In this document: one piece after another, positions 1,354 through 62,863 of the stretch | Numbering within the stretch: the stretch's first letter is position 1 | Layout of the letters: each line of letters begins with the position of its first letter | From: a virus | Taxonomy: Duplodnaviria > Caudoviricetes | Virus record (IMG/VR): IMGVR_UViG_2596583600_000002 | Coordinates: 1 to 64,000 of that record | Strand: one strand, 5' to 3' | DNA length: 64,000 bases | Position numbers and translations under genes: made by a program | Notes under the pieces: generated by a model | Database searches by the model: none | What the model was told of the DNA's origin: nothing | What the model saw: the letters and a program-made list of their open reading frames with translations, nothing else

Positions 1354-2211
1354 TCAGGCGCGTCCGCTGATGATCAGTTCGCGGACTGATTTGACGGCTT
1401 TGCCGCCGCCCACATGGTAGGTGGTTTCTTCCTCCTCGATGTCAAATCCGGCGAACAGTTTTCGCACTGTCGGATGATCATTGAGGCTGAGCAGGAACCG
1501 GCCTTGCAGGCTCCCCAGCCGCTCCGCCATTTCCTCAAATTCGGGCTGGCCGAACATGCCAGCACCATAGTCTCCCTCGCAGTTGAAATATGGGGGATCG
1601 AGGTAGAACAATATGCCCGGCCGGTCGTAGCGGGTGAGGAAATCCTGCCATCGCAACCTTTCGATCGTCACTGGCGCGAGGCGCTCATGCAGCGCTTCCA
1701 GCATGGGCGCGAGCTTGGTCAAATCGAAGCGGCTGGGATTGAACGGCGTCACGCCGAAAGAGCGGGTGGTGACCTTTCCGCCAAAGGCCAACCGTTGCAG
1801 ATACAGGAAGCGCGCGGCACGTTGCATGTCCGTCAGGGAGGACGGATCGAGGCGCAACAGCTTCTCGAAACCGGCCCGCGACGCGATCTGAAAGCGGATC
1901 ATGTCCAGGAAGGCGACATAATGATGTTGCAGGACGCGGAAGAAGGTGGAGACATCCTCCGACCAGTCATTGATGACCTCTGCCTTGGGGCGCAGATCGC
2001 GGCGCAGAAAGACGCCTCCCATGCCCACAAACACCTCCGCGTAGGTATGATGCGGTATCGCATTGATGCGGCCGATCACCCGCTTTGCGAGATTGCGCTT
2101 GCCGCCGATATAGGGCGCGACCGGACGCACAGGATCGACAGATTGCAAGGGCGTTGAAACGTCATTGTCAGCCGCATGAAGCGGCATGGAAAAGGGACTC
2201 GACTCTGTCAC
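1354..2211 (-). CDS. D12-class N6-adenine DNA methyltransferase (Dam-like)
   Basis: PYIGGK, EVFVGMGGVF, INDW, YLDPPY, LSLND motifs; start uncertain (GTG 2211 or ATG 2187; frame stays open to 2490). Confidence 0.93.
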   Translation of the reverse strand: MTESSPFSMPLHAADNDVSTPLQSVDPVRPVAPYIGGKRNLAKRVIGRINAIPHHTYAEVFVGMGGVFLRRDLRPKAEVINDWSEDVSTFFRVLQHHYVAFLDMIRFQIASRAGFEKLLRLDPSSLTDMQRAARFLYLQRLAFGGKVTTRSFGVTPFNPSRFDLTKLAPMLEALHERLAPVTIERLRWQDFLTRYDRPGILFYLDPPYFNCEGDYGAGMFGQPEFEEMAERLGSLQGRFLLSLNDHPTVRKLFAGFDIEEEETTYHVGGGKAVKSVRELIISGRA

Positions 2212-2214
2212 GAT

Positions 2215-2229
2215 GTTCTCTATGTGTTC
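2215..2229. promoter_or_regulatory. LexA (SOS) box upstream of the methylase
   Basis: GTTC-tctatgt-GTTC matches the alphaproteobacterial GTTC-N7-GTTC consensus. Confidence 0.8.
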
Positions 2230-2375
2230 GTCCCGTCCAGCGTTGGATGGCGGGATGGTTTCGGCTTTGGCCAGCCGGATCATGACGGGTCGAGTCCGTC
2301 GGCTTGGGGCGTTGGCGCGCCCCATCCCCCGCCCACGGGCGGTGAATTGAAAATTAGAGATTTCGGCGCTATGTA

Positions 2376-2487
2376 AGGGGAGCGATGCGCGCGACGCGGT
2401 GAATTCTTCCCTCCGTAGCGCGAGGCTACTGGCCGTCGACCGCTTAGCAGGGGACAGGAAGTCCCTGCCACGCATCGCTTCTCCCCT
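2376..2487 (-). ncRNA. Candidate structured RNA directly downstream of MuF
   Basis: Closing stem 2376-2389/2471-2487; internal stems GCAGGG/CCCTGC, GCGGT/ACCGC, GTAGC/GCTAC; loop CTTCC complementary to GGAAG. Confidence 0.55.
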
Positions 2488-3719
2488 CATTGCCGCCTAT
2501 CCATCAGGATCGTGAGATGACGCGTCTCGGCCGCGATGTTGCGCACACGGCTCCGATGGAAGCTGACGACGATGGGTAGTTCGTCGCCAGCATCCTGACG
2601 CACGACAGCCTTCCACACGTTGCCCGCCTCGTCGGCGAAGAAGATCAGCCGATCGGAACCCTGCTGGGCGATGACTAGGGCGCGGGACACAATGTCAGGC
2701 AGAAGCCGATAAGCGTCCGGCCCTAGCTCTGGGTGACCACGCGACACGTCGGGCTGGTCGCCTCGCTGCTTGCGATAGACGCCTTCTGGCATGACCACCA
2801 CACGGGCATTTGCCTGTATCGCCTCCTGTTGGGCCGGATCGAGGATCGCAACAGGAAAAGCGCCGCTGGGCCGCGCCAGAAACTGGTCAAAGGCGGGATC
2901 GCGGATGATTTCCCGCAGGGTGGCATCCGCCGCCGCGTCCATACCCGCATCGGTGGCGGCGCGGAGCGAGGCAACGGTTTTTGTGGCGACGGCCCGCAGA
3001 TGGGCGGTGCCGGGATTGTAGCTGAAGCCGGGATCGATCCCGTCGGGAACCATGATAGGTTGGCCGGTCGCCGGGATGAACATGCGCGCGCCCTGGGGAA
3101 GGTTGTGTTCGGGCGTGATGGCCCAGCCCATCCGCTTCATGCGCCGTTCGCTGACCTGCTCGAAATGGCATTTGCAGCCCCAGCCATTGGGCGGAAAGTG
3201 TGTCTGCCAGAAGGGATGATCGACCGGCAGGAGAATGCCATACCATGTCATGTGGAGCGGGCGCTTATGCTCTGACGTCGAGGGCAGATAGCGCAGATAG
3301 GGGTAAACGTCCTTCTGGCGCTGGATGCGGGTCCAGTGGCCCGACGCCATGCTCATGCGAACGTTGGTGTTGTAGATCGTCCGCAGGCGGCGGTTGTTGA
3401 CGATGATAGTCTCGTCCGTGCCGGTCAGTTCGGCGTTGGATACCGCGCCCCACCAGCCTGTCTTTCGCAGTTCGGGCATGATGCCCGACTTCCATTCTTC
3501 GAACGTGCCGCCGTTGCGGATCACGTCGTCGATCGACGTGCGCATCGAGCGCAGCAGATCGAGCTTCGCGACCTTGGCGACCGTGAAGGCGACAGCATGA
3601 TTTTCGTGCATCATTTCCGACCAGCGGACGGTCGGCTGCAATGCATCGCGCGCTTCGAAGGCGCGAACGACATCATCAGGCTTCAGGAAGATGGAATAGC
3701 CGAGGTTGTCAGCCATCAC
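2487..3719 (-). CDS. MuF (gp30-like) head morphogenesis protein with C-terminal BECR-fold (PBECR2-like) nuclease domain
   Basis: AFTVAKV, RLRTIYNTN, HFPPNGWGCKC, GIDPGFSYNPG; extension with HPEL..Y..LP and VSFHR. Confidence 0.88.
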   Translation of the reverse strand: MMADNLGYSIFLKPDDVVRAFEARDALQPTVRWSEMMHENHAVAFTVAKVAKLDLLRSMRTSIDDVIRNGGTFEEWKSGIMPELRKTGWWGAVSNAELTGTDETIIVNNRRLRTIYNTNVRMSMASGHWTRIQRQKDVYPYLRYLPSTSEHKRPLHMTWYGILLPVDHPFWQTHFPPNGWGCKCHFEQVSERRMKRMGWAITPEHNLPQGARMFIPATGQPIMVPDGIDPGFSYNPGTAHLRAVATKTVASLRAATDAGMDAAADATLREIIRDPAFDQFLARPSGAFPVAILDPAQQEAIQANARVVVMPEGVYRKQRGDQPDVSRGHPELGPDAYRLLPDIVSRALVIAQQGSDRLIFFADEAGNVWKAVVRQDAGDELPIVVSFHRSRVRNIAAETRHLTILMDRRQ

Positions 3720-3949
3720 CGCCTCCTTCGGTCACAGGCCATCACGCCGCGTGGAATGCGTCCTGCTGCAAGCTCACGTTCGACGGCGCGCATCTGGGCC
3801 GCGATGTGGCGTTCTTCGATCGGCAGTCCGCGGAGCATTGCCCATCCATGTTCAGTATCGGGGAGGCCCAGATAACGGCGGTATTCATCATCATCGCCGA
3901 AATCGGCGGGAAGCGGGTCTATGTCCGATGTTCCGATGCGACAGTTCAT
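3716..3949 (-). CDS. Hypothetical protein
   Basis: ATGA overlaps with both neighbours. Confidence 0.6.
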   Translation of the reverse strand: MNCRIGTSDIDPLPADFGDDDEYRRYLGLPDTEHGWAMLRGLPIEERHIAAQMRAVERELAAGRIPRGVMACDRRRR

Positions 3950-4623
3950 GCCAGTTGCAGGCGCTCGGCGCTGCCTCCCACGCCCTTAGAGAGATCGACT
4001 TTCCGTCCGGCCTGATGACCGCGCCAGTAGTCATTTTCGAGTCGGCCGCCTTTCGTGGACGCGCTGCGATTGTCGACCGTCGCCAGATCGCCGCCGAAGC
4101 GCTTGGCGATATATTGGTCGACAAGCAAGTTGGCGGCGACGGGCGGCATCAGAGCCTTGACCTTGCTATAAACCGCTCTGGCCCAAGCCTCGCAGAACAC
4201 ATCCGCGCGCTGACGCTTGCGTCCGGGGCGGCAGCGCTTGAGATGGACGCGGATATATTCCTGCCGTGCCGCCTTCAACTGGCGAAACAGAACGGTGAAA
4301 GCGAAACCGGCGATTTCGGGGACTGGGCCGGGTCCGATGTAAATCCGATGCAGGTCCGCGTCGATGATGACCTTGCAGCCCAGCGCGTGGCGGACAGTCA
4401 TGCATAGCGCCGTTTCCCATAGCGGCGGGCGCTGTGTCGCCGTGCCCTTTGCCTTCGCTTCGCCGATTTCCGACAGCGCAATGTCATCCATGGACAAGTC
4501 ATGCTCATCCATTAGCGCACGGGCTTTCGCCAGCGCGGCGGCGGCCTCATGCTCGTTGGAGGATTTAGCCAGGGCGAGGCATTTCCTGATCTTCGAGAGC
4601 AGTACGTGGCGGTCGTCCGACAT
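3946..4623 (-). CDS. DUF2786 family protein
   Basis: KIRKCLALAKSSNEHEAAAALAKARALM signature. Confidence 0.85.
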   Translation of the reverse strand: MSDDRHVLLSKIRKCLALAKSSNEHEAAAALAKARALMDEHDLSMDDIALSEIGEAKAKGTATQRPPLWETALCMTVRHALGCKVIIDADLHRIYIGPGPVPEIAGFAFTVLFRQLKAARQEYIRVHLKRCRPGRKRQRADVFCEAWARAVYSKVKALMPPVAANLLVDQYIAKRFGGDLATVDNRSASTKGGRLENDYWRGHQAGRKVDLSKGVGGSAERLQLA

Positions 4624-4868
4624 TATTCGAGACCCAGTGCGTTCTTGTAGGTCTCCAGCAACGCTTCCGCTTCCATGCGGGAATTGCGTTCCAGTTTCCG
4701 CAGCCGGATGATCGCCCGCATCGTTGCCACGTCATAGCCATTGGCCTTGGCCTCCAGATAGATATCCTTGATATCGTCAGCGATGGCCCTTTTCTCTTCT
4801 TCCAGGCGCTCAATACGCTCGATCAAGAGGCGCAACTGTTCGGCGGCCACGTTACCTTCGGACATCAA
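4623..4868 (-). CDS. GapR-like (DUF2312) DNA-binding protein
   Basis: QLRLLIERIERLEEEK..IADDIKDIYLEAKANGYD...LLETYKNALG. Confidence 0.92.
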   Translation of the reverse strand: MMSEGNVAAEQLRLLIERIERLEEEKRAIADDIKDIYLEAKANGYDVATMRAIIRLRKLERNSRMEAEALLETYKNALGLE

Positions 4869-6937
4869 TTTTCTCCCTGAGTAGCAAGTTGGATCGCGGC
4901 GTCGAGCTGGACGGCGAAGCCCGCCCGTTCGAGCGCCTGGACAAGGGGCTGATCGTCCATAGCGCCGAGGGCGTCGGACAGGATGGCGCGCGCTTCGGTT
5001 TCGCTGTCGGCCGCAAGCAGCCGATCGACAATGTTGCCCGTCATCGCGTTGGCGACGCGATAGCCGTCCTCCGCGATCATGCGGTCCACGATGCCGTCGG
5101 CGTCGTCGTGGCCGTCGTCATCCAGTTCGGCAAAGCTGGCAGCGGATGGGACTTCCGCCACCGTTTCATGCCAGTCACTTCGGATTGCCTCGAAGCGTTC
5201 TGGCCCGAAAACAAGACGGCCCTGATAAGGGGCGACCTTCGCCAGATCGAGATTGTCCGCCTCATAGGTCAGGGTGACGTGAGGCAGATAGGAGGGATGA
5301 TCCCAGCTAGCGCCCGCGTCCCGCATTTCGCGGTGTCGCCATTGCAGGTCGACGGATTGAAACAGCAATGCAACGGCCCCGTCATCGCCCAGCCGTTCGA
5401 CCAGGCGCGGGCCACCGGGGCCGACAATGACCTCCCCGGTGTTGGAGCCGAATTGCCCCATGGCAAACCAGTTCACCGGCCGTTTGGAATAGGTGACCGT
5501 GACATGCAGATCGTCGGCCGGAAGCGTAGAGGTGAAACCCTGCGACCGCGCCCAGTCCAGCACTTCGCTGGCATTGAGAAGCTGGCGATAAACATAAAGC
5601 GGGCGTGGATCGTCTGCCGCGAAGCTGACAACATCCTTGCCATTTTCAGGGATTGGCGACTTGCGCAATTTGTCAAACTGGCCGTTTTGCTTGTCTTCGG
5701 CCCACTGGGGGGCGGCGCTGGATGGAGCATCGGGATCATCACGGCGCACGAAGCCTTCGCCATAGGTGTCACGGAAGCTGTCTTCCGTGCGGACCCAGCC
5801 ATTGCTGGCATGGATCGCGTCCGTTTCCGCGTTGGCCTTGGTGTCTTCCTCCTCCTCGACGATACGGCGCACGATGGGTGCCGCGACATCGGGGCCAAAA
5901 TTCCAGTCGGTCCACCAGCGCGCCACCTGTGCGGTGAAACTGTCGGTCAGATCGTCCGCGTCGGTCTTAACGACCTCCAGCTTGACGTCGGCATGGACCT
6001 CACCCTGTGAGCGCGAAGAGCCGTTGTCCGTGGTCATCGTCTGCGACAGCACGATCTTGGCGATGGCCGCGTCCATATAGAGGCAGAGCTGATGATAATC
6101 GCCCATGCCGGAACGGGCGGCGGTCAGCAGTTCCACCGCCATGCCTTCGGGAACGACAAATCCGCTATCCGTCGCAATGGCCTGAAGCGCCATCAGCAGC
6201 TTGTTGATGTCATCGCTGCTGGAGCCGCGCGGATAGGTGCCCTTCGCCGTCGGGGTGCCGAATTTATCGAGGAAGATATTCCAGAAGCGGATGCCGTTCC
6301 GCTTGAACAGGGTGGGCCAGTAAAGCCAATGGGCAAGGCCGTGGCCATAGGGCTGATCGTCGTCGGCTGCGCCCACGCTGTGCACCCAGAACTTGCGTTC
6401 GGGCATGATCTCGCCCTGCATGCTCGTGGGCGTGAGCATCCGCAGCTGATCCTCATCATCGAACCTGAAGCGGCGGGCATGGCGCACCTTCATGCCGACG
6501 ATGTCGAACAGCCCGTCGCGCTGGCCCCACATCAGTTCGGCCACGCTGTAGCCGTAGAAAGAAGCCATCAGCATCTTGCGGGTGATGCGATCCCAGGGCA
6601 GGCGCTTGAGCGTCCGGTCGAACGCTTCCGCCGCCTTTTCGGCGCGCGGATCATCATCGTCCCCGGCGATCACATTCCAATCGCGCGCGACGACTGCGCC
6701 GATGCGCTGTTGCATCGTCGAAAAGACCTGGTCATCGTTGAACACGACATCATAGGCGCCCCAGTCGATGGCGGTGGCCAGCTTGGGGTCTTTGGCTTCG
6801 CGCAGGCCGCGCACCCATGGCTGGGTGATATCGCGGCCGTCGCGAGTGGTGGCGATCTCTGTCGTCAGATCGGGCGACGGTCGGGGAACGGCAGTCGTTC
6901 GGCCGAATGAGCGGTAGGGCGCAGGACGTTGGGCCAT
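4865..6937 (-). CDS. Mu-type portal (DUF935/gp29) carrying an internal Acb1-like 2H phosphoesterase domain (~5160-5615)
   Basis: YGYSVAELMW, FLDKFGTP, IAKIVLSQTMTT portal motifs; insert with LYV...HVTVTYS...RH...GA...PHVTLTY...DW. Confidence 0.92.
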   Translation of the reverse strand: MAQRPAPYRSFGRTTAVPRPSPDLTTEIATTRDGRDITQPWVRGLREAKDPKLATAIDWGAYDVVFNDDQVFSTMQQRIGAVVARDWNVIAGDDDDPRAEKAAEAFDRTLKRLPWDRITRKMLMASFYGYSVAELMWGQRDGLFDIVGMKVRHARRFRFDDEDQLRMLTPTSMQGEIMPERKFWVHSVGAADDDQPYGHGLAHWLYWPTLFKRNGIRFWNIFLDKFGTPTAKGTYPRGSSSDDINKLLMALQAIATDSGFVVPEGMAVELLTAARSGMGDYHQLCLYMDAAIAKIVLSQTMTTDNGSSRSQGEVHADVKLEVVKTDADDLTDSFTAQVARWWTDWNFGPDVAAPIVRRIVEEEEDTKANAETDAIHASNGWVRTEDSFRDTYGEGFVRRDDPDAPSSAAPQWAEDKQNGQFDKLRKSPIPENGKDVVSFAADDPRPLYVYRQLLNASEVLDWARSQGFTSTLPADDLHVTVTYSKRPVNWFAMGQFGSNTGEVIVGPGGPRLVERLGDDGAVALLFQSVDLQWRHREMRDAGASWDHPSYLPHVTLTYEADNLDLAKVAPYQGRLVFGPERFEAIRSDWHETVAEVPSAASFAELDDDGHDDADGIVDRMIAEDGYRVANAMTGNIVDRLLAADSETEARAILSDALGAMDDQPLVQALERAGFAVQLDAAIQLATQGEN

Positions 6938-8478
6938 TAGAAGGACAATCCGGTTGACCGGCGGCCGACAGTGCCGAAGCCGGTGGTGGTGATGACGGTT
7001 TCAGCGGCGGAGGAACGGGTCTGGTTGAGGACATGAACGTCCATCGGGCCGACGTCCTCGTCAGCAGCCGCGCGCAGGTGCATGAGCGCGATCGCGTTGT
7101 CGCCATGGCGCTTGCCCTTCGCTCCATCGGCCTTCGACTGGATGGAGCCGTCGGGAATTTTCGGGACGCCCTTGACCAGCTTGACCATCCGCAGGTCGTT
7201 GAGCGTTCCTTCGTCCTTGGGGATGATGAAGGTCCGATCTTCCAGCCCGGCCTTGAGCTTGGGCATGAAGGCGAGATAGCTCTTGTCGCTGGCCATCACC
7301 GCTTCAATGCGGTTCGCTCCCCATTTCTGCTGGGCATATTCCGCCAGCGCCGAGCCGTTGCCGCGCGCGTCCATCTTGCCGGAACAGAAGTTCGGCATCC
7401 GCGACACGATCCAGTTGAGCACGAATTCCTGCTCGCGGAAGGGCACGTTCCGCATTTCGAGGATGAATCGGCAGATCAGATTGAGGTGCTGATCGAGCTG
7501 GCCCGCTGCGATCGGCGAGACGTCGCCATTGCGGGCGAAGTCCTGACCGAAGAACGACCGGCGCAATGGGTCGAAGTCGCGCAGCCACGGCCCGACCTCA
7601 TCTTCCAGAAACTCGCGCACGAATTCCTGCCGATATTCGTCGGACTGTTGCTCGAAGCCATCGGGGCATGTCAGGCGGATGACGGGCAGTTCCGGCGACA
7701 TGGCGGCTATGATGGTGGCGCGGGATAGATAGACACCGGAGCCGCGCGACGGAATGACGTCCAGTTCCTCCTCGGCTGCATCGCCATAGCGCTTGCGGAG
7801 GGACGCTTCCCACGCCTTTTCCTTCTCCGCCGACCATTCCTCGCCATTTCGCAGGCAGATGCGTTTGAACAGGCCGTCCGCCAGTGCTTCGGCCAGCGTG
7901 ATGCGCATGACGTGCCCCTCCTTCTTTCCCTCCCGAATTTCTTCGATCAGCAGGTTGAAGGGATTATCCGCCCCGTCATGGGTGGAAATGACAACGACAT
8001 GACTGCCCCACATGGTGAGCGCCATCGCCGCCTTCAGCAATTCGTCCAGATCGTCGTGGAACGCGGCTTCGTCGATCAGAACCTTGCCCTGCATGCCGCG
8101 AAGCGAGCGCGGCTTGGAGGACAGGGCGATAACGGCCTTGCCTGACGGGAAGTCCACGCGGAGCGCCTTGATCCCGTTTTCCGACCCATCGTCGAACAGG
8201 AATTCGGACGAGCCGGTGGCGACCTCGTCAAAAGCCTTCGCGAAGTCGCCGACATAGCCGATGAACTCCCGCGTCATGTCGAGATTATAGGCGATGTAAT
8301 AGACGTTCTGCGGGCGAAAGGCGGGCGCGGCTGTCAGCACGGCATCGGCGGCGAAACCATAGGTGATGCCGGTGCGTCGTGATTTTTCAATGACCAGCAG
8401 CTGATGCTGGGCGCTCAGCGCAATCGCCGATGCCTGGTAGGGCAGGAGCAGCTTGATATCGGACAGGGCGCTGGTCAT
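6937..8478 (-). CDS. terL: Terminase large subunit (Mu gp28-like)
   Basis: LLPYQ, EKSRRTGIT, IDEAAFH, GQDFAR, HGD motifs. Confidence 0.93.
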   Translation of the reverse strand: MTSALSDIKLLLPYQASAIALSAQHQLLVIEKSRRTGITYGFAADAVLTAAPAFRPQNVYYIAYNLDMTREFIGYVGDFAKAFDEVATGSSEFLFDDGSENGIKALRVDFPSGKAVIALSSKPRSLRGMQGKVLIDEAAFHDDLDELLKAAMALTMWGSHVVVISTHDGADNPFNLLIEEIREGKKEGHVMRITLAEALADGLFKRICLRNGEEWSAEKEKAWEASLRKRYGDAAEEELDVIPSRGSGVYLSRATIIAAMSPELPVIRLTCPDGFEQQSDEYRQEFVREFLEDEVGPWLRDFDPLRRSFFGQDFARNGDVSPIAAGQLDQHLNLICRFILEMRNVPFREQEFVLNWIVSRMPNFCSGKMDARGNGSALAEYAQQKWGANRIEAVMASDKSYLAFMPKLKAGLEDRTFIIPKDEGTLNDLRMVKLVKGVPKIPDGSIQSKADGAKGKRHGDNAIALMHLRAAADEDVGPMDVHVLNQTRSSAAETVITTTGFGTVGRRSTGLSF

Positions 8479-8884: not shown

Positions 8885-9130
8885 TCACAGACCCATGCCT
8901 TTCAGCCGGGCGATGCCGACGACCTGACAGGCGAGTGCCGATCCCGTATAGCCGCCCACCTGATAGCGGGGGATGGGGCTGTCCCCCAACCGGAACTGCT
9001 GCACCCTGACGCCAGCACGAGCGAGATAATCCAGGGCAGCCTTCAGGCGGCGCGGCGGCACCGCGTCGGCGCTGAAGCCCGCGATCGGCGTTTCGGCGAA
9101 CCTGTCCAGGGCGGCGAACAAATCCGTCAC
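8885..9130 (-). CDS. Hypothetical protein
   Basis: GTGA overlap with the terS stop. Confidence 0.55.
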   Translation of the reverse strand: MTDLFAALDRFAETPIAGFSADAVPPRRLKAALDYLARAGVRVQQFRLGDSPIPRYQVGGYTGSALACQVVGIARLKGMGL

Positions 9131-9669
9131 GCCGCCAACCCCAGCAGCTTGGCCTTGATGCGGTCGATGGCGGCTTCGGATGCCCCGGCGTCCCGTGCGG
9201 CTTCCACCGCATCGTCGGCGGCCTTGCGCCGAGCTTCCTTGGCCGCTTCCTCGCGGATGCGGGCATCGCGTTCCGCGTCGATCTTCGCCGAGGAAAGCAG
9301 TTCCTTCGTGGCCTTGGCCAGCAGATGGAAATCCTTGGCGCTGACGTCGGGGTCTTCCTCCGACGCCATGGGCAGGACCATCCGGGTGCCGATGCTGGTC
9401 AGCATGTGCACCATCAACTTGCCCTCGGCATTGTCGGTGCCGCCAAATTCCGATGCGAACGCCTCCGCGACCGAACGCACGTCGCGCTGGCGGGAAGCCA
9501 GTTCCGAATATTGCTTGGCATAGCGGCCGACGGCAGAACGCGACCGCTTATGGCCTAGTTCGGCCAGCCTCCCCACGATGTCGTCAATTGTGGCACCTGC
9601 CTCCATCGCCTGAAGGACGGCGGCCTGGACACCGTGCGGCAGCGTTTTGAGCGACGATTTGCGCCCCAT
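9127..9669 (-). CDS. terS: Terminase small subunit (DUF3486, Mu gp27-like)
   Basis: MGRKSS..LP, SRSAVGRY; position upstream of terL. Confidence 0.85.
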   Translation of the reverse strand: MGRKSSLKTLPHGVQAAVLQAMEAGATIDDIVGRLAELGHKRSRSAVGRYAKQYSELASRQRDVRSVAEAFASEFGGTDNAEGKLMVHMLTSIGTRMVLPMASEEDPDVSAKDFHLLAKATKELLSSAKIDAERDARIREEAAKEARRKAADDAVEAARDAGASEAAIDRIKAKLLGLAA

Positions 9670-9670
9670 G

Positions 9671-9970
9671 TCACCGCTTGCCCGTCTTGTGACGCCAGAT
9701 ATCCTCGACGCGAAGGCGACCTTCGGCCACCTCGCAACCGTTCGGCAGGATCGATGCGACCACATAGGGGCCGCAGTCCGTCACCTCGACAAGGTTCAGG
9801 TCATGCTGGGCGAGCCAGCGCATCTGTTCGGCCACGGCCGGGCGGGGGAAACGATGGCCCAGTCCGGTCAACAACACGGTCAGGACATCGTCATTTTCCT
9901 CGCCGCCGATGTCGTTCAGCAGATCGAGGATGGCGCGCCGCACAAGGGGCAGGATCGCTTCGGGGATCAT
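9671..9970 (-). CDS. Mu gp26-like winged-helix protein
   Basis: RRAILDLL...WLAQHDL...G.EVAEG; conserved position before terS. Confidence 0.75.
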   Translation of the reverse strand: MIPEAILPLVRRAILDLLNDIGGEENDDVLTVLLTGLGHRFPRPAVAEQMRWLAQHDLNLVEVTDCGPYVVASILPNGCEVAEGRLRVEDIWRHKTGKR

Positions 9971-10326
9971 GGCCGCAGCCCCCGGTCGACAAGGATTTTC
10001 AGATAATCGTTGGTCGTCTCAAGATGGGTGGAAAGCCCCTTGAAGGATGCCTCCATCGCACTGACCCGCTCAGCCAGATCACCCATTTCCGCCATAAGCT
10101 GGACGCGCGTCGGCGGATCGTCCCGCTCGTCCTTCAAATCCTTTATGGCGTTGGTCGTCGCGACCTGATCGACCTTGAGCTTGTCGACGGTGAGCTTCAG
10201 CGCGTCGAAATCGTCCTTCGACGGAAATTTCTGCCGCAGCCAAAGAAACCCGGCGAGCAGGATAAGAGGCGTGATCGTGGATGCGATCGGCCAGAGGTCA
10301 ATGATAAGCTGAATCCAGTCAGGCAC
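9967..10326 (-). CDS. DUF2730 / Mu gp25-like membrane-anchored coiled-coil protein
   Basis: N-terminal TM segment, coiled coil, PPT motif, synteny. Confidence 0.7.
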   Translation of the reverse strand: MPDWIQLIIDLWPIASTITPLILLAGFLWLRQKFPSKDDFDALKLTVDKLKVDQVATTNAIKDLKDERDDPPTRVQLMAEMGDLAERVSAMEASFKGLSTHLETTNDYLKILVDRGLRP

Positions 10327-10428
10327 AATAAACCCCCGACTGGCGATGATCGCAATTGGACACGGTGCCCCCATGAAACGGCGTTGAAATGCCGGTTCAC
10401 GATGGCTGAATATCGCTTGGGGTCATGG

Positions 10429-10444
10429 TGTCCCTCGGGGGACG
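10429..10444 (-). promoter_or_regulatory. Late-activator site GTCC-N6-GGAC for the leftward packaging operon
   Basis: Same dyad at 1302, 21127 and 37624. Confidence 0.65.
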
Positions 10445-10454
10445 CGAGGGCGCT

Positions 10455-10946
10455 CTATTGACCCGGCGCGGTGTCGAACATGTCGAGTTGCGCGGGATCG
10501 CGCGGGCGCGCAGGAAAGACGAAAGGCGTGGCCTTGCTGCCTTCATCCGTCTTGCTGATCAAGCGCGAAAGGTGGCGGCGCGGCATGCGCAGGATAGCCG
10601 CGCCTTCCACAACTGTCATCCGCTTAGCGCGCACCGCTGCCACAACACCAGCCCGCCGCGCCTTTTCAAGCGGCCTTCTGCCAGCAGGGATGGGCAACCG
10701 CTCGCGCTGGAAGGCATGCGTGAAAGTTGCAGCCTTATCCGCACCTATGATGTCCAGGAACGGGTTCCGGTGCGGATCGACCGGGACATAGACGTCCTGC
10801 CCTGCAAAGGCGTCGACGATGCACAAGGTTTCGTAAGCGCCGATATGAGCAGCCATTTCCAGCATGATCGGCGGCCACGCAGCATCGGCCTGCACATCTG
10901 CCGGGATGGGGAGGTCGTGGATATGGAGAGTGCGAGCGCGCGCCAT
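10455..10946 (-). CDS. mor: Mor/C-family transcription activator
   Basis: IG......IVDAFAGQDVYVP motif and C-terminal HTH; follows gemA. Confidence 0.75.
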   Translation of the reverse strand: MARARTLHIHDLPIPADVQADAAWPPIMLEMAAHIGAYETLCIVDAFAGQDVYVPVDPHRNPFLDIIGADKAATFTHAFQRERLPIPAGRRPLEKARRAGVVAAVRAKRMTVVEGAAILRMPRRHLSRLISKTDEGSKATPFVFPARPRDPAQLDMFDTAPGQ

Positions 10947-11653
10947 CAGTCGCGAACCTCCTTCCCACGGTGGCGGCGGAGCTTCCGGCCCAGCAGGCGG
11001 ATCGCCGTGTCCAGTTCGGCGGTCGTCCACATATGGCTGTTCGGGATCAGCTCCAGCGCCACCTGAAGATAATGGCTGTGGTGACCACGGATGACGCGAT
11101 CGGCGAGCAGCGGCTCGGCCAGTGCATTCAGCACGGCATGGCGGTCCGCGTGGAGATCGCTGTAACCCGGCGTGTGATCGGAAATCGTGCCCACCTCCTC
11201 AGCCGTGGGCCATTCGACGCCGCAACGCGACAGCCAGCCCTTGAGGGCTTCGATCACGCTGGCGGCCTTGCGATGGTCGAGGAACTTCAGTGCCGACACG
11301 CCCGTCTGGCGCTCGACGAAGGCCGAGATGGCGCGGTCGCCCGGTTCATCTATCGCTCCCAACCAGTAGAGGGACCACCACAGCGCCTTGATCTTGCCGA
11401 TATGGGCGCGGTGCCCCATCGGGCCTTTCCAGCCCTTGTTGAAATGGTCGAGCATCCGGCCGAGATCGCCGATCGACATATCCGACATGCTGGCCTTGCC
11501 GACCAGTTTGACCTGAATGTCCTTGCGCATGTCGTCGTCGATCCCCTGCCGCTTGCAGGCGGCGCGGACGGCGATGATCAGGCGCTGGCAGCCATATTCG
11601 GGTTTGCCCTGGCGACGTGGCTGTTCGGAATGAAGCCGACGGACTTCAGCCAT
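10946..11653 (-). CDS. gemA: GemA (DUF1018) regulatory protein
   Basis: GK.SMSDMS, KIKALW, AFVERQTGV, VIEALK. Confidence 0.88.
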   Translation of the reverse strand: MAEVRRLHSEQPRRQGKPEYGCQRLIIAVRAACKRQGIDDDMRKDIQVKLVGKASMSDMSIGDLGRMLDHFNKGWKGPMGHRAHIGKIKALWWSLYWLGAIDEPGDRAISAFVERQTGVSALKFLDHRKAASVIEALKGWLSRCGVEWPTAEEVGTISDHTPGYSDLHADRHAVLNALAEPLLADRVIRGHHSHYLQVALELIPNSHMWTTAELDTAIRLLGRKLRRHRGKEVRD

Positions 11654-11924
11654 GGAGCGCCCTCCGCTTCTCCAACTCGCCCAACAGCTTTTCGGTCGGG
11701 ACGGCCGAAAGGTCGATCGCAGCGGACGCCGGTGCAATGGCACGATCCCGACCCGGCAAGCGGACGAGGTGCCCGCGATCGATCAGCCGGTGGATGCGAT
11801 TATGGACGGGACCAGTGGATTTGCCGCCCAGGGCCACCATGATTTCCCGCATGGTGGGCGCGATGCCATGTTGCGCGTAATATTCCTGAATGAAGGTCAG
11901 GGTCCGGTGCATTTCCGGGGTCAT
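11646..11924 (-). CDS. LexA DNA-binding-domain-only protein
   Basis: LTFIQEY...G.APT.REI...G.KS...VH..I..L...G.L.R.P...RAI; no peptidase domain. Confidence 0.85.
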   Translation of the reverse strand: MTPEMHRTLTFIQEYYAQHGIAPTMREIMVALGGKSTGPVHNRIHRLIDRGHLVRLPGRDRAIAPASAAIDLSAVPTEKLLGELEKRRALHG

Positions 11925-12108
11925 ATGATTTCGTCCTGTCCAGGGTTCTTGGCCGCATGAAGCTGGCGCAGAAGATCATTCAGCGCCCAGCTATTGGAGA
12001 CCTCGAATTCCACCTTCACGATGGTGCTTTTCGGGCGCGAGACCGTGGCGAAGGATTTGACCTTCGTGTGCGGGCGGTCCGCCGAGATGAAATAGGAGTC
12101 GTCGCCCA

Positions 12109-12363
12109 TCACTGGATGCTCCTGGCGACGGGTTGATCCTGCAGCGTTGCGGCATGAACCATGTCGGCAAGCAGTCCCGCGACATAGTCGATCTCGTCGC
12201 CATCTAGGCGGACGCATAGGCCTTCACCGTCGCGTGTGATGGCGATGGTCAACGAGCCTTCGTCGGCGGAAAAGGCGATACCGCTTTGGCCCTGTGGCGC
12301 GAGGGCTGTGCCCACTTTCGTCTCGAAGCCGCTCGCAATTATCTGCTTCATAGGTTTAGTCAT
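12109..12363 (-). CDS. Hypothetical early protein
   Basis: Coupled ORF in the early operon. Confidence 0.5.
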   Translation of the reverse strand: MTKPMKQIIASGFETKVGTALAPQGQSGIAFSADEGSLTIAITRDGEGLCVRLDGDEIDYVAGLLADMVHAATLQDQPVARSIQ

Positions 12364-12546
12364 GCGGTTGTCCTTGGAAATGCTTGTGAAAATGGACGGC
12401 GAGTTCACGCATGCGCTGCGGATCGGCGAGGTCGGGAATGTCGAGGACTTCCTGCAGCGCTTCGACGGGGCGGGTCTGGTCGCGCGCTGTCGTCATGGCG
12501 AAGCGGATCGGCTGGGGCGTGTCGGCCGCTATGATGTAGACGCGGA

Positions 12547-12882
12547 TCATGATCGACCGCACCTTTCGGGATGGTGCGCCGACAGAGCCGCCAGCAGGTT
12601 TGCCGATGCGATCTGTGCGTCGTCGACCCACAGATCGGGATTGGCGGCGACGTTGATGCCGCTGGGCGCGACGTCATAGTGCCGGGACGGCGACTGGATC
12701 ACCATGTCGCGGTTGTCGTGGAGCCAGACGCGGATTTGCGCCTGCCTGCGCGCGCTGGGGCGAAGCGCTCCCTTCTGCCATTTGCCAAGGAACCCGGAAT
12801 CTCTGGCGACAGTTTCGCCAAATGCCCCCCGGCTCATGCCGGAGCGGGCGAGGAAGGCATGGATTTCCTCCAGCAGCGTCAT
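12547..12882 (-). CDS. Cro-like HTH protein
   Basis: LLEEIHAFL..SGMS...FG..VARD, similar to 782-976. Confidence 0.7.
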   Translation of the reverse strand: MTLLEEIHAFLARSGMSRGAFGETVARDSGFLGKWQKGALRPSARRQAQIRVWLHDNRDMVIQSPSRHYDVAPSGINVAANPDLWVDDAQIASANLLAALSAHHPERCGRS

Positions 12883-13079
12883 GCGACCTTCCTTCCCCCG
12901 TGGCGGTTCCATTGTTCGATGGCGACGGCGTCATTCCGTTCGAAATCTTCGATCGCCAGACCTTGCGCGCCGCAGGCGACACGGGCGCAGGTCACCTGCG
13001 TGATGACCGTGCCCTCCCGCGTTTCGCGCGCGCGGATGACAGGCACCCGCCCGCAACTGCATCGTTCGGCCCGCATCAT
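12879..13079 (-). CDS. Small Cys-rich (Lar-like zinc finger) protein
   Basis: CSCG...C...CG...AIEQWN. Confidence 0.55.
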   Translation of the reverse strand: MMRAERCSCGRVPVIRARETREGTVITQVTCARVACGAQGLAIEDFERNDAVAIEQWNRHGGRKVA

Positions 13080-13272
13080 GACATTGCCGCCAGTTCGGCG
13101 TGGAGCCGTGCGAGCTTCTGTTCGCAGTTCCGGATTTGATAAGGCAGGCGGTGGCGACGAAGGGTCCGCTGCTTGAGGAGCCGGCCATATTCGTCGAGTT
13201 CCTCGCCGGTGAGGCTGCGCTCACCGGATTTCGCCTCGATCTCGTCGATACGTCGCAAGAGGATGGCTGGTT

Positions 13273-13524
13273 TCACTGCGCCGCCTCCATGAGTTTGACA
13301 GTGGCATTGCCCCGCCAGCGGTCGAGCAGGACAGCGCCAGCCGAATAGGAGCAGCTTGCCGTGATGCCCGCCACGCGCAAGGTGTTGGGGTCGCCGCGCC
13401 GGAAATGGGCGCGGTGATTGCCAACCAGCGCGGCAATGATGTCCGCCGCATCCGAACCGTTTCTGATCTCTTCCAGGACAAAGGCCATTGCATCCTGAAG
13501 CCGGGCGCGCATCGTGGGCGTCAT
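13273..13524 (-). CDS. Hypothetical early protein
   Basis: ATGA overlap with gam. Confidence 0.55.
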   Translation of the reverse strand: MTPTMRARLQDAMAFVLEEIRNGSDAADIIAALVGNHRAHFRRGDPNTLRVAGITASCSYSAGAVLLDRWRGNATVKLMEAAQ

Positions 13525-14081
13525 TCCGCAGCCTCCTCGACAGATACCAGTTCCGGATCGACGGCTTTCTTTTCCGCGCGGTCGATAAAGAATTCTTCGG
13601 TCTGATGGTTGCGGGCACCCAGCCAGAGCAGAAGCTGCCCCAGTTCATCGCCCTTGCTGATCGCGGCGATGCATGCCTGTTTGTCGAGCTTCGTGGTGAT
13701 GCGGAGTAGTTCGGCCATGCCGAGGTCCGCCAGTTGTTCGACCAGTTGCTCTGCCTTCAGCCCGTCATGCTTGAGCGAGGGCGTCGACATGCGGTTGCCG
13801 ATCTTGCAGCCCGCCAGTGCCACCGACTTGGTTTTCCCGTCCGTCATGGAAGGTGCGGCGACCGCCCACCATGCGCGCAGCCGGATGAACAGGTCTTTCA
13901 TCCGCTGATTGAGCGGGGCGGCGAATTCGTCATGCGCGGCCTTGATCCGGGCAATGGAACTTTCGCCATCGAGCCGCAGCTCATCCAGCTTGTCGAGCAG
14001 ATCGCGATATTCGGCGATGACCGCGACCGCTTCCTCTACGGTCTGCGGGGCTTCCAATGCGGGAGCCTTCTTCCTTGCCAT
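13521..14081 (-). CDS. gam: Gam-like host-nuclease inhibitor
   Basis: Coiled coil, KS..L..CKIG.R.S.PSL, LDKQA, EEFFI. Confidence 0.85.
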   Translation of the reverse strand: MARKKAPALEAPQTVEEAVAVIAEYRDLLDKLDELRLDGESSIARIKAAHDEFAAPLNQRMKDLFIRLRAWWAVAAPSMTDGKTKSVALAGCKIGNRMSTPSLKHDGLKAEQLVEQLADLGMAELLRITTKLDKQACIAAISKGDELGQLLLWLGARNHQTEEFFIDRAEKKAVDPELVSVEEAAE

Positions 14082-14438
14082 TAGTGGTTTCCTTCCGTGG
14101 TAATGCCGGGTGTGAGTGGCGACATGAGGGGGATGGCTGTCTGACAACGGGCGCATTCGGCCATGATCCGGCCGACCAGCCAGTTGCTGCCGCCGCAGCC
14201 GGGGCAGGTGTTGGTTTCGGTCTGGCGATAGAGGACCACATGGCCGCGCTCGCCGGGCAGCGCGCGATAATCGGTGCGGGGCGGCGTCATGGCAGCACCG
14301 CCATGATGCCGATGCCCAGCACGAGCAGCGGGACGAAGATCAGCGCCGCCTGGCGCAGGACGATGTCCATTTCGACCGTGCCGATCTGCACCTCGCTGTC
14401 GGAAAACCAGCGGTGCGCGAGCGCGTAGAGGCGGGACA

Positions 14439-14819
14439 TCATGCGTCGCCTCCATCGCTGTTGTTGGGGCAGGCCGGGCAGGCGGCGGCATATTGATGAT
14501 GGATCTGATTGCGCGGCGGTCCCTTGCGGCGGCGGTTCCGCATGCAACTGGAGAGCGGGATCGGGCCGAACAGCGGACAGGTGACGTCTTCCGCGCCGTA
14601 GGTGGCGCGAACCAGCCGCTCGGCCTCTGGATAGCTGCCCGCATAGCTGCGGTTGATGATGCGGCTGATGTAGCCGCTGGATTTGCCCAGTCGCTCGCCG
14701 ACGACGCGCTGGTTGTCGGTGTCGCAGGCGCTGGCCAGCAGGCGCACCCATGCGGGCATATCCTCGCCCCACGCGACGGCCGCGCGTTCGAGGTTCGTTG
14801 CGCTAACATTAAGAGACAT
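14439..14819 (-). CDS. Transcriptional regulator (HTH + Cys motif)
   Basis: HTH, YPE, V.CP..G.I...C...C..CP. Confidence 0.75.
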   Translation of the reverse strand: MSLNVSATNLERAAVAWGEDMPAWVRLLASACDTDNQRVVGERLGKSSGYISRIINRSYAGSYPEAERLVRATYGAEDVTCPLFGPIPLSSCMRNRRRKGPPRNQIHHQYAAACPACPNNSDGGDA

Positions 14820-15411: not shown

Positions 15412-15698
15412 GGACGGCCCCCGCGATCCAGCGCATGAGCCAGCTCACCCGCGATGTGGACCATCCGATCCTTTTCTCGGACCTCATCGGGTGAGGCCGT
15501 TCCGTGCATGGCGCGTCCGCAGAGATGGAGCGCCTCGCCTGCGATCTTGCGATGCAGGATCGTCATGTCTTCGCGGCTCAGTATCAGGGCGAAGATTTCT
15601 TCGCCGCGTTGCTCGGCTTCACGAAGAGCCTTGCCCAGGTCGCGTTCGAGCTTTGCCTTGACCGGCGGCTGCATCGGGTTGGGAAACCGGGCCGTCAT
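15408..15698 (-). CDS. Hypothetical protein
   Basis: Coupled ORF. Confidence 0.55.
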   Translation of the reverse strand: MTARFPNPMQPPVKAKLERDLGKALREAEQRGEEIFALILSREDMTILHRKIAGEALHLCGRAMHGTASPDEVREKDRMVHIAGELAHALDRGGRP

Positions 15699-18703: not shown

Positions 18704-18739
18704 GTCGCTTGATTGCACGTCACTTCTCTCTCTGGCTGT

Positions 18740-18780
18740 CTGTTGACATGCATAATGACAGGTAAAATGACAGGTCAAGA
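18740..18780. promoter_or_regulatory. ner/repressor switch region with AATGACAGGT direct repeats
   Basis: Two tandem copies lying between TTGACC and a TATGCA-like -10 on the minus strand. Confidence 0.55.
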
Positions 18781-21060: not shown

Positions 21061-21125
21061 AGTGGCCTTGCAATATCGTTCCTGTGCTGCGATCTGGCGA
21101 ATAGGCCGCAGCCAATAGCCATGCG

Positions 21126-21145
21126 TGTCCCTGCAGGGACATCAA
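21126..21145 (+). promoter_or_regulatory. Late-activator site for the head-tail operon
   Basis: TGTCCCTGCAGGGACATCAA; dyad ends 39 nt before ATG 21179. Confidence 0.7.
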
Positions 21146-21178
21146 TCGCGTTCCGGCCGCCCCGCTATCCGGTGGGGC

Positions 21179-22153
21179 ATGGATCAGACACCCCCTTCCA
21201 TCCGCATAGCGCGAACGGGCACCTTCAAATCGAATGAGGGTGTCGATGTGCATTTTGGCCCGTCGAAACTGGCTGAGATCGCCGCCGCCTATGATCCGGC
21301 ATCCGATCCGGCCCCGCTCGTCATCGGCCATCCGCAACTGGATCATCCGGCCTATGGCTGGGTGGAGAGCCTGACGGTCGAGGATGGCGAACTGATCGCC
21401 ACGCCGTCGGACATCGAGCCGAGCTTTGCCGAAGCCGTCCGCAAGCGCCGATACGCCAAGGTTTCGCCCCGTTTTTATACGCCGGGCCATCCCGGCAACC
21501 CCAAGCCCGGCACTTGGTATCTCAAGCATATCGGGTTCCTGGGCGCACATGCGCCCGGCATTAAGGGACTGGGCACCGTCGCCTTCTCCGAAGGCGATGA
21601 TCAGGGCGTCGCCACTTTTGAATTTTCCAACAGCAAGGATGCATCCATGAACAAAGACGCCCTTGAGGCGAGCTTTGCCGAGCGCGAAACCGCGCTTGGC
21701 GAGCGCGAGCGGACGCTCAATGAGCGCGAGCAGAACATCGGACAGCGGGAGGAGGCACAGCGCGTCGCAGCCACCAAGGCGCTGCATGAAGGCAATGTCA
21801 GCTTTGCCGAGGGCATGGTTGCCGACCTGAAGCTGGCTCCGGCCGGAAGGGGATTGCTGGTCGGCGTCCTTGACCATCTGGATACGACTGGCGTCGTCAG
21901 TTTCGGCGAGGCAGGCGATATGACGCCTGCGGGTGCGCTCAAGAAGCTGCTGTCTTCGGCGGCCCCACTTCTCGATCTTGGCGAGCGCGGCAAAAAGCCT
22001 GCCGAGCAGCAGCCCTATGTCAGCTTCGCCGCGCCCGATGGTTATGAGGTCGACCCCGACAAGGCCGATCTTCATGCCCGCGCCACCCGCATCCAGCAGG
22101 AGCATCCTGAATTGAGCTGGATGCAGGCCGTGGCCCGCGCCCAGGCGGGCTGA
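21179..22153 (+). CDS. Prohead protease/scaffold (Mu I/Z-like); probable internal scaffold start at 21647
   Basis: APLVIGHP..D.PAYGWV, Y.KVS..FY, YLKHIGFLGA..P.IKGL. Confidence 0.9.
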   Translation: MDQTPPSIRIARTGTFKSNEGVDVHFGPSKLAEIAAAYDPASDPAPLVIGHPQLDHPAYGWVESLTVEDGELIATPSDIEPSFAEAVRKRRYAKVSPRFYTPGHPGNPKPGTWYLKHIGFLGAHAPGIKGLGTVAFSEGDDQGVATFEFSNSKDASMNKDALEASFAERETALGERERTLNEREQNIGQREEAQRVAATKALHEGNVSFAEGMVADLKLAPAGRGLLVGVLDHLDTTGVVSFGEAGDMTPAGALKKLLSSAAPLLDLGERGKKPAEQQPYVSFAAPDGYEVDPDKADLHARATRIQQEHPELSWMQAVARAQAG

Positions 22154-22630: not shown

Positions 22631-23560
22631 ATGTCCATGAACAGTGCCCAGGCGCGCGTCCTCGATCCGATTCTTACTCAGCACGCGCGCGGCTATACCA
22701 ACGCCGAATTTGTCGGCCATGCGCTCTTTCCTGTGGTCACCATGCCTACCCGCGCCGCCAAGCGGATCGAGTTTGACCGCTCGTCCTTCCGTCGCCGCCG
22801 CACCCGCCGCGCGCCCGGCGCGCCCATCGCCGCGCTGGAATTCGGCTATGAAGGGAAGCCGGTTGCCCTGCATCAAGAAGCCCTTTCGGCCGTCACGCCG
22901 ATCGAGCATCAGCAGGAAGCGGGGGCTGTGCCTGGCATCGACCTTCAGCAGGTCGGCGTCGATACCGTGCTGGCCGTCATCGCGATGGAAAAGGAAATCC
23001 AGCAGGCGGAAGTCGCGCGCAATGCTGCCAGCTATGCTGCGACGAACAAGGATGCGCTCGCTGGCGCGGAAAAATGGTCCGATCCCGACAGTGATCCCAA
23101 AGCGCAGGTCTATGATGCGAAGGAAGTGATCCGCAAGCGCATTGGTCGCCGTCCCAATACGTTGGTGCTTGGCGGTGGCCTCACCAGCGCGCTGGGCAAG
23201 CACCCGCTCATCACCGCGCATTTCCGGCCGACCAATGCCGCCGCGATCTCGCTGGCGATGCTGGCCTCCTATTTCGACGTGGAGAGCGTCGTGTCAGGCG
23301 ATGCGATCTACGACCAGGCCGATGGAACCACGGTCGATGTCTGGGGCGGTGATGCGATCCTGGCATGGGTGGCTCCGGCCGGTCAGCGCCAGATGCCGCT
23401 TCCCAGCTATGGCTACACCTATCAGCTTCAGGGCCATCCCCTGGTCGAGCAGGCGCGCTTCGACGCCGATATCCGTAGCTGGAAGAACGACTGCCTCGAC
23501 GAATTCTCGGCCGAGCTCGTCGGCGCCGACGCGGGCTTCCTGTTTCAGGACGCTCTCTGA
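22631..23560 (+). CDS. Major capsid protein
   Basis: DPILT..ARGY.N..FVG..LFP, GRRPNTLVLG, PSYGYTY, AGFLF. Confidence 0.88.
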   Translation: MSMNSAQARVLDPILTQHARGYTNAEFVGHALFPVVTMPTRAAKRIEFDRSSFRRRRTRRAPGAPIAALEFGYEGKPVALHQEALSAVTPIEHQQEAGAVPGIDLQQVGVDTVLAVIAMEKEIQQAEVARNAASYAATNKDALAGAEKWSDPDSDPKAQVYDAKEVIRKRIGRRPNTLVLGGGLTSALGKHPLITAHFRPTNAAAISLAMLASYFDVESVVSGDAIYDQADGTTVDVWGGDAILAWVAPAGQRQMPLPSYGYTYQLQGHPLVEQARFDADIRSWKNDCLDEFSAELVGADAGFLFQDAL

Positions 23561-42618: not shown

Positions 42619-42850
42619 ACAGCTTCGTCCCTTTGCGCCAGTCGTCGGCGGACTCGCCCTCACCTGTCAGGCGCTCCATATAGGTGTCGATTTCGGCGCG
42701 GCTCCAATGCAGGCCATTGCCCAGCATGACGGGATGCGGCAGGCGGCCAGAAGCAATCTCGCGCTCAAACTCTGCTGCGGACAGGTCGAGATAGGCGCAG
42801 GCGGTCGCCCGCTTGAGCATCCGTGGCCAGAATGGAACGTGCGCCCCCAT
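42605..42850 (-). CDS. Excisionase/AlpA-like protein
   Basis: WPR.L....A.AYLDLS...F...G.LP.P...W. Confidence 0.8.
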   Translation of the reverse strand: MGAHVPFWPRMLKRATACAYLDLSAAEFEREIASGRLPHPVMLGNGLHWSRAEIDTYMERLTGEGESADDWRKGTKLYANG

Positions 42851-56544: not shown

Positions 56545-56645
56545 GAAAATGCTTATTTTTCAAACCGCTGACCTAAAACAGGCAATTCCCGCTGACCTCC
56601 CGCCGACGTACCGCCGACGTACCGCTGACCTCCCGCCGACCTCCC
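56489..56645 (+). repeat. Iteron-like 10-bp repeats CCGC(T/C)GACCT, probable replication origin
   Basis: About nine copies around the helicase stop, with an AT-rich spacer. Confidence 0.8.
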
Positions 56646-57583: not shown

Positions 57584-57612
57584 CTTAACCGCATGCTGTA
57601 ACTGGTTGGCCC

Positions 57613-61759: not shown

Positions 61760-61776
61760 CCAGACAGGAGAATATC

Positions 61777-62631: not shown

Positions 62632-62667
62632 CTATTGCCTTTCGCGAAAGAATGAATCATGATTGTT

Positions 62668-62857: not shown

Positions 62858-62863
62858 CATCCC

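Follow-up and report, generated by a model that had tools for sequence, protein, structure and literature searches.

We analysed a 64,000-nucleotide stretch of viral DNA (positions 1 to 64,000 of IMG/VR record IMGVR_UViG_2596583600_000002, hereafter the window) and found that the portal protein of its Mu-like transposable prophage contains an internal Acb1 domain, a 2H phosphodiesterase directed against CBASS, the antiphage signalling system based on cyclic oligonucleotides, placed between two copies of a short motif, SF(A/G)(A/E). The same motif is repeated in the head maturation protease/scaffold protein of this phage. We favour the reading that the motifs are prohead-protease sites and that Acb1 would be excised inside the prohead, and assign it a probability of roughly 0.55. 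Cleavage at the motifs is what we infer from their distribution and conservation, and the further step, in which Acb1 is retained in the head and injected with the DNA, is speculative. The parts of the portal gene on which the argument turns are the following.

4865..6937, minus strand: portal gene, 690 residues (P0001)
5759..6754, minus strand: Portal_Mu (PF06074, DUF935) core, residues 62-393 (Pfam, E 2.5e-100)
5627..5758, minus strand: linker 1, residues 394-437, variable and low-complexity (hypervariable alignment columns; predicted disordered at residues 408-433)
5615..5626, minus strand: upstream motif S438-F-A-A441, bordering Acb1 on its N-terminal side and a putative site of the prohead protease
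5165..5602, minus strand: Acb1 2H phosphodiesterase domain, residues 446-591 (Pfam, AlphaFold2 model, Foldseek)
5498..5506, minus strand: first catalytic HxT, H478/T480 (alignment to PDB entry 7t26)
5273..5281, minus strand: second catalytic HxT, H553/T555 (alignment to 7t26)
5126..5137, minus strand: downstream motif S601-F-A-E604, within the low-confidence model segment 588-621
4865..5125, minus strand: C-terminal helical tail, residues 605-690 plus stop codon, the counterpart of the part of Mu gp29 that is missing from mature virions

The reading frame has the context of a portal gene, in that the stop codon of the terminase gene overlaps its start codon and the gene for the MuF-like protein lies downstream. 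Pfam recognises two domains in it, the Portal_Mu core (336.5 bits, profile positions 4-335 of 336) and the internal Acb1 domain, and no embedded peptidase domain was found in this frame by the same search. The core resembles the solved Mu-type portals 9khx and 8rka in a PDB sequence search. A first-pass annotation, made from the sequence alone, had described a Mu-type portal with an insert of ~155 residues, after which the usual C-terminal helices resume. The portal assignment is borne out by the Pfam match, and the insert is indeed internal; its size needs a slight upward correction, as 163 residues separate the two motif copies (S438 to S601). The helices also resume as described: residues 605-690 align with the C-termini of relatives that lack Acb1 and, weakly, with 9khx and 8rka. 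In the full-length AlphaFold2 model (77 sequences), the mean predicted local distance difference test score (pLDDT) is 72.5, and two segments with pLDDT below 50, residues 408-433 and 588-621, sit on either side of the confidently modelled Acb1 domain, with helices appearing again at residues 613-682. Both motif copies lie in or beside these low-confidence linkers.

We regard the identity of the domain as Acb1 as secure on profile and model evidence. With 133.2 bits (E 7.2e-39), the Pfam match to Acb1 (PF23474) is far above the cut-off of 27, and it covers profile positions 2-143 of 144. An AlphaFold2 model of residues 436-606, built with 44 sequences, has a pLDDT of 90.7, and its best fold match in the PDB by Foldseek is 7t26, the Acb1 of phage FBB1 (E 2e-8, template modelling score 0.79 on the target, root-mean-square deviation 3.3); after the Acb1 entries 7t26 and 7t27 come a phosphodiesterase of Burkholderia phage BCSR5 and then LigT. 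The two 2H motifs picked out in the first-pass annotation, LHVTVTYS at residues 477-484 (5486-5509) and PHVTLTY at residues 552-558 (5264-5284), are both present and align with LHTTIVYS and PHITLSY of 7t26, respectively (HMMER). They contain the HxT/HxT pattern that is reported as the catalytic tetrad of Acb1 (H44, T46, H113 and T115; PMC9117128).

To follow these residues across relatives we used a word-indexed search with the whole portal, which returned 577 proteins at E <= 1e-10. The best 120 of the 577 were analysed, and the resulting alignment (P0001 and 119 others, P0004-P0122) contains 112 portals with Acb1, seven without it and one with a partial domain. Among the 112 Acb1-bearing portals, H478 is kept in 111, T480 in all 112, H553 in 111 and T555 in 107. 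The catalytic residues of P0001 are intact, and the domain looks like a working anti-CBASS enzyme. In the 152-residue FBB1 Acb1, Y12, W74, F107 and W147 are reported to stack on the bases, with residues 145-152 forming a C-terminal lid (PMC9117128). Among 77 portals Y448 is invariant and W589 is at least 90% conserved, and the two are positioned where Y12 and W147 would be; the HMMER alignment covers only residues 19-141 of 7t26 and stops short of both. Going by position, Y12 and W147 may have their counterparts in Y448 and W589.

A 2H domain could also act on a different substrate, for instance the cyclic oligoadenylates of type III CRISPR (clustered regularly interspaced short palindromic repeats) systems, other immune nucleotides or RNA ends bearing a 2',3'-cyclic phosphate, and this would be compatible with excision. 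The matching PHROGs family, phrog_755, is labelled 'RNA ligase', LigT and other 2H enzymes are among the fold matches, and both RNase and nucleotide-degrading roles have been weighed for portal-fused 2H domains (Iyer et al. 2017, PMC5512222). We consider such a substrate very unlikely here, because the Pfam score is far above the cut-off, Acb1 itself is the best match in both fold and sequence, a broad substrate range is reported for Acb1 (PMC9117128; PMC13728456) and a type III CBASS operon is present in the genome of the host. That operon is located on contig C78 at about 9600-14600 (locus L019, 3323-8094) and comprises a capP/capH-like regulator, a cyclase (E 6e-128), HORMA, TRIP13 and a TIR-type effector, with a SoFic-like gene adjoining it.

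The flanking motifs lie where they had been noticed at the outset: the SFA of VVSFAA at 5618-5626, and the SFAE of AASFAE at 5126-5137. The seven Acb1-less portals (516-540 residues) are 76-87% identical to P0001 (alignment A1), and each has a single ASFAE exactly where the Acb1-bearing portals have SFAADDPRPLYV ... ASFAE. Their tails run from the portal core through a flexible linker and one xSFAE motif into ~86 residues of helices, and these last ~86 residues are collinear between the two groups. Within the Acb1-bearing group, the upstream motif is conserved as S in 98, F in 111, A in 112 and A in 110 portals, and the downstream motif as S in 98, F in 83 (L in 27), A in 109 and E in 99, while the linkers around both are hypervariable. 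Exactly two copies of SF[AG][AE] are present in 73 of the 120 portals. In P0001 the two copies are identical at 11 of 15 bases and differ at synonymous DNA positions, which argues for selection on the motif peptide; the same differences led us to reject the idea that the motif was recently duplicated at the DNA level. The upstream site lies seven residues before Y448, and W589 lies 14 residues before the downstream site.

The motif is found again in the protease/scaffold gene.

21125..22153, plus strand: head maturation protease/scaffold of the Mu I/Z type (P0002; phrog_976)
21422-21433, 21671-21682, 21800-21811, 21899-21910 and 22022-22033, plus strand: five motif copies in P0002

P0002 matches phrog_976 (head maturation protease) with E 1e-81 and contains SF[AG][AE] at residues 100, 183, 226, 259 and 300, a spacing of 33-83 residues; these are the PSFAE, ASFAE, VSFAE, VSFGE and VSFAA copies to which the earlier reading had drawn attention (21422-22033). 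We collected 120 protease/scaffold homologues, namely P0002 and P0124-P0242, leaving out P0123, the window's own shorter gene call. The motif occurs once in 3 of these proteins, twice in 2, three times in 11, four times in 21, five times in 46, six times in 30 and seven times in 7, so that 104 of the 120 have at least four copies (mode 5), against 0.044 expected per protein from composition. Translated in six frames, the window of 64 kb contains 15 matches to SF[AG][AE]; seven fall in the portal and protease/scaffold genes, and none of the remaining eight falls in the capsid or MuF reading frames.

Such lineage-specific repeats, common to scaffold and portal tail, would fit binding as well as cleavage. 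SF(A/G)(A/E) could be a docking motif for a common partner, for instance capsid protein or protease, which keeps the tail on the assembly core and is no cut site at all, and the copy located inside the protease domain match would be in keeping with this. The 33-83 residue spacing in the scaffold, however, is as expected if the scaffold has to be fragmented in order to leave the head, and the tail of the Mu portal is reported to be removed by protease I (PMC11915804). We think docking an improbable explanation of the repeats.

In Mu, RR1-B, RcapMu, BcepMu and B3 we read both the portal gene and the protease/scaffold gene, and in Mu and B3 the motif co-varies between portal tail and scaffold. 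In Mu, gpI/Z has (V/I)AALSA(E/Q/M) three times in addition to AVLSAD and ASLSAV, and the portal tail has KEAALSAED at residues 425-433 (AALSAE at 427-432), which is followed by 80-81 residues. This tail length is close to the size loss of ~8 kDa given for the Mu portal protein gpH in the older literature, which also speaks against docking. In the cryo-electron microscopy structure of the Mu virion, the last 124 residues of gp29 are missing, which was put down to cleavage by protease I (PMC11915804). B3 has xEFAE four times in its scaffold and STEFAEGD in its portal tail, with TEFAEG common to both proteins. BcepMu has PAFAE and SAFAE in the scaffold and AASFAE in the portal tail, and RR1-B and RcapMu have xFA(E/A) and xF(G/S)x copies in the scaffold and AFAA or TFAA near the end of the portal. 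We propose this lineage-specific motif, repeated in the scaffold and found once in the portal tail (AALSAE in Mu, TEFAEG in B3, xSFAE in BcepMu), as a candidate recognition motif of the gpI protease family.

We also searched for the Acb1 domain outside the Mu-type portals. A scan of residues 436-606 against 1.84 billion cluster representatives gave 2085 proteins at E <= 1e-3, including 621 at E <= 1e-30. The best 150 of the 2085 were examined, and the start of the domain could be placed in 135 of them. These 135 proteins have lengths of up to 230 residues (6), 231-500 (35), 501-800 (72) and more than 800 (22), and many of them may be contig fragments. Pfam on 17 Acb1 matches gave Phage_portal_3 (PF06381, the former DUF1073) in 11, Portal_Mu in four, Phage_portal in one and Acb1 alone in one, which places Acb1 on three portal families and agrees with the early remark that Acb1 fusions are known for DUF1073 portals. 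Cyanophage Pam3 offers a further case of this fusion: its portal sequence in the PDB (8hds) has Acb1 at residues 467-618 (E 4e-34). Foldseek with the Acb1 model did not return 8hds, and we therefore take the domain to be missing from the deposited coordinates; the accessible part of the Pam3 paper makes no mention of it. Forty cultured-phage records match the Acb1 query, mostly under the name 'portal protein', and none of the 40 comes from the Mu-like phages retrieved by the protease search.

These fusions bear on a second explanation, in which Acb1 is tethered to the portal or simply co-expressed with it. The fusion would then only time its synthesis with the head genes, the enzyme would work in the cytoplasm on unassembled portal or remain fixed to the crown in the head interior, and the protease would cut the ancestral downstream site only, or neither. 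Most close relatives of this Acb1 are plain C-terminal Phage_portal_3 fusions with nothing downstream, the domain ends within 25 residues of the C-terminus in 73 of the 135 proteins in which it was located, and CBASS is reported to be triggered late, by the prohead protease, at a time when the portal is made (PMC12991175). On the other hand, the upstream SFAA is stricter than the downstream copy (F in 111 of 112 portals, A in 112 of 112) despite the hypervariable linker around it, and among the best 150 matches SFAA occurs just upstream of Acb1 in only 4 of the 119 other fusions that have 30 upstream residues. The motif thus goes with the phage lineage and not with Acb1. An upstream SFAA without function is hard to explain, because it is strictly kept here and missing from the fusions to other portal families. 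We consider tethering without excision possible but unlikely.

A different motif, R-x-AAND(A), precedes Acb1 in a minority of the other fusions, for example in P0246, P0249, P0251, P0255, P0266 and P0273. As R..[AV]AND it is present in 10 of the 119, several of which are Phage_portal_3 portals by Pfam, and in those phages it could take the place of the SFA site. Some Phage_portal_3 portals, in large proteins of 1100-1470 residues (P0270, P0287 and P0317), combine Acb1 with additional cargo, namely a Zeta toxin-like kinase, a pyridine-nucleotide oxidoreductase or an ADP-ribosyltransferase; such cargo was found in three of the 17 proteins analysed with Pfam. We considered fusions of Acb1 to prohead proteases, since three phage records carry this label, and rejected them: the two that were inspected are stand-alone genes of 150-199 residues. 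These are the Acb1-like genes of Edwardsiella phage vB_EpM_ZHS (2116-2715) and Roseobacter phage DSS3P8 (2495-2947), both labelled 'prohead protease', a label that is probably mistaken. In reference genomes, the Acb1 family was found in one of 150 other species genomes of the host's family, in an open frame of 683 residues. Of 401 genomes from the host's class, 40 had Portal_Mu. No other portal cargo was seen in the three longest other Portal_Mu frames, whose tails of ~110-160 residues were judged from coordinates only, without Pfam. The internal architecture is frequent in metagenome-derived sphingomonad prophages and rare per reference genome.

The excision that we favour would proceed as follows. 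A Mu-type portal would have acquired an Acb1 cassette as a cargo module at its tail motif site and kept a second copy of the motif, SFAA, at the N-terminal edge of the cassette. SF(A/G)(A/E) would be the recognition site of the prohead protease of this phage, a homologue of Mu gpI, which would also cut up the scaffold part of its own protein at four to six of them. In the Acb1-less relatives, a single cut would remove ~87 residues from the portal. The C-terminus of the portal points into the interior of the head. Cutting P0001 at both motifs would yield a portal of 49.5 kDa, an Acb1 fragment of 18.2 kDa (about A441-A603) and a tail peptide of 9.2 kDa, and up to 12 copies of Acb1 would be released within each head. 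The termini of the excised fragment would be close to those of stand-alone Acb1, and if Y448 and W589 are equivalent to Y12 and W147, its ends would be native-like and its lid free. Once freed, Acb1 might either stay in the capsid and enter the next host with the DNA, or act in the producing cell when the protease triggers CBASS. According to a 2026 preprint, prohead proteases activate CBASS cyclases by cutting an activation loop (PMC12991175); for this reason Acb1 released by the protease would be well timed even without injection. More broadly, and only tentatively, the cleavable tail of Mu-type portals might be a protease-addressed cargo slot, in which the very protease that triggers CBASS frees twelve Acb1 per head when and where the trigger occurs and also leaves them locked in the capsid for injection, with xFA(E/A), or LSAE in Mu, as the previously undefined site of the gpI family.

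Several points weigh against excision and delivery. The first copy of the motif in P0002 (residue 100) is inside the protease domain match (residues 19-172), so not every motif need be a cut site. When the portal tails were shuffled, the longest word shared with the scaffold was reached in 7 of 2000 shuffles for Mu and 17 of 2000 for B3, but in 168 of 2000 for RR1-B, 1444 for RcapMu, 260 for BcepMu and 237 for the phage of this window; these proteins are alanine-rich, and the shuffle test alone is convincing only for Mu and B3 and weak for the other four of the six phages. Acb1 is simply C-terminal in the commoner Phage_portal_3 fusions, so a fusion without double excision is evidently selectable. 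Twelve enzyme molecules per virion are few, and what would be gained by early delivery is not obvious, given that CBASS reportedly fires at a late stage of infection (PMC12991175). Finally, a folded domain of 18 kDa may be unable to traverse the tail channel unless it is unfolded.

The portal and the protease gene are ~14 kb apart on opposite strands of the prophage, which spans ~1.3 kb to ~38 kb of the window (also given as 1354-38000). The other genes of its two arms are listed here in order along the window.

1354-2490, minus strand: D12 methyltransferase
2487..3719, minus strand: MuF-like minor head protein (Pfam, PHROGs)
3946-4623, minus strand: DUF2786/DUF7168 gene (Pfam)
4623-4868, minus strand: GapR-like DNA-binding gene (Pfam)
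6937..8478, minus strand: large terminase (Pfam)
9127-9765, minus strand: gp27-like protein
15695-16510, minus strand: MuB-like ATPase
16507-18324, minus strand: MuA-type transposase
18713-19456, plus strand: repressor gene, the start of the plus-strand arm
22631..23560, plus strand: major head protein, without a copy of SF[AG][AE]

The minus-strand arm thus runs from the transposase through the MuB-like, gp27-like, terminase, portal, GapR-like, DUF2786/DUF7168 and MuF genes to the methyltransferase; within it, the GapR-like and DUF2786/DUF7168 genes (3946-4868) separate the portal from MuF. On the plus-strand arm a cement-like protein gene lies between the protease/scaffold and major head protein genes, and the tail genes are found beyond them. 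The head module is therefore split, with terminase, portal and MuF at one end on the minus strand, and protease/scaffold, capsid and tail genes past the repressor on the plus strand. The identical split layout is present in four of four related IMG/VR proviruses of 38-42 kb, and a split of the head genes is known from Burkholderia phage KS10, to which it was called unique in 2008 (PMC2628397). The same arrangement in the four proviruses and in KS10 indicates that the layout is natural and that portal and protease come from one phage, and it led us to rule out a rearranged or chimeric prophage. Elsewhere in the window, an integrase gene lies at 41608-42663, and a second phage-like region (54356-63952) includes a P22-like portal gene (59741-61759), a capsid gene of the Phage_capsid_3 type (62864-63952) and a primase-helicase-like pair, Toprim/AAA_25.

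Were the motifs to be protease sites, they would offer a testable mechanism for freeing a portal-fused counter-defence enzyme, supply the Mu gpI protease family with a candidate recognition motif, and put an anti-CBASS enzyme physically beside prohead proteolysis, the CBASS trigger reported in the 2026 preprint. Should the cargo-slot proposal also be true, the motif could help to predict other head cargo, or serve to load it. The analysis also shows that the close relatives of this Acb1 are mostly built into head proteins and are not stand-alone genes, a point unmentioned in the anti-CBASS literature examined. Our literature search found no description of the internal Mu-type architecture, the duplicated flanking motif, the co-variation of the motif or a recognition motif for gpI-type proteases. 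It also found no publication that pairs Acb1 with DUF1073; the portal fusion is undiscussed in the Acb1 literature examined, whose supplementary tables may list fused homologues, and the word 'portal' is absent from Hobbs et al. 2022, the Acb1 paper.

The portal-Acb1 fusion is not new in kind, as 2H-portal fusions have been in print since 2017. In that work, 2H phosphoesterase domains fused to portal or MuF proteins were predicted to be packaged and injected and to be capable of degrading defence nucleotides (Iyer et al. 2017, PMC5512222). The polyvalent proteins described there place an anti-defence enzyme on a virion-targeting domain, as Portal_Mu and Acb1 are joined in one reading frame here; their release was ascribed to embedded metallopeptidases, whereas we propose a prohead protease acting in trans at duplicated sites. 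Compared with Mu gpH/gp29, the portal of the window belongs to the same family and has the same tail layout, namely a linker, a motif common with the scaffold and ~80 residues of helices; the Mu portal has one motif (AALSAE) and no cargo, in contrast to the two motifs and Acb1 found here. Similar in concept are the internal proteins of T4 (IPI*) and DarA/DarB of P1, which are anti-defence proteins targeted to the head, trimmed by proteolysis and delivered with the DNA. These reach the head by means of a capsid-targeting peptide or head-assembly partners, without fusion to the portal, and they counter restriction, not CBASS. The processing of DarA/DarB is described in PMC5512222. The Acb1 of T4 (gp57B) and of FBB1 (7t26/7t27) is of the same PF23474 family, has the same HxT/HxT tetrad and provides the best structural match; it is a stand-alone protein of ~150 residues, while the domain here is internal to a 690-residue structural protein and ~25% identical in the structural alignment. 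Phage_portal_3 portals, among them those of Pam3 (gp3), Pseudomonas phage phiPSA1 and Rhizobium RHEph phages, likewise carry a fused Acb1, whose identity to the domain here is 43-54% (tblastn), but they belong to another portal family and have Acb1 at the extreme C-terminus without a second flanking motif.

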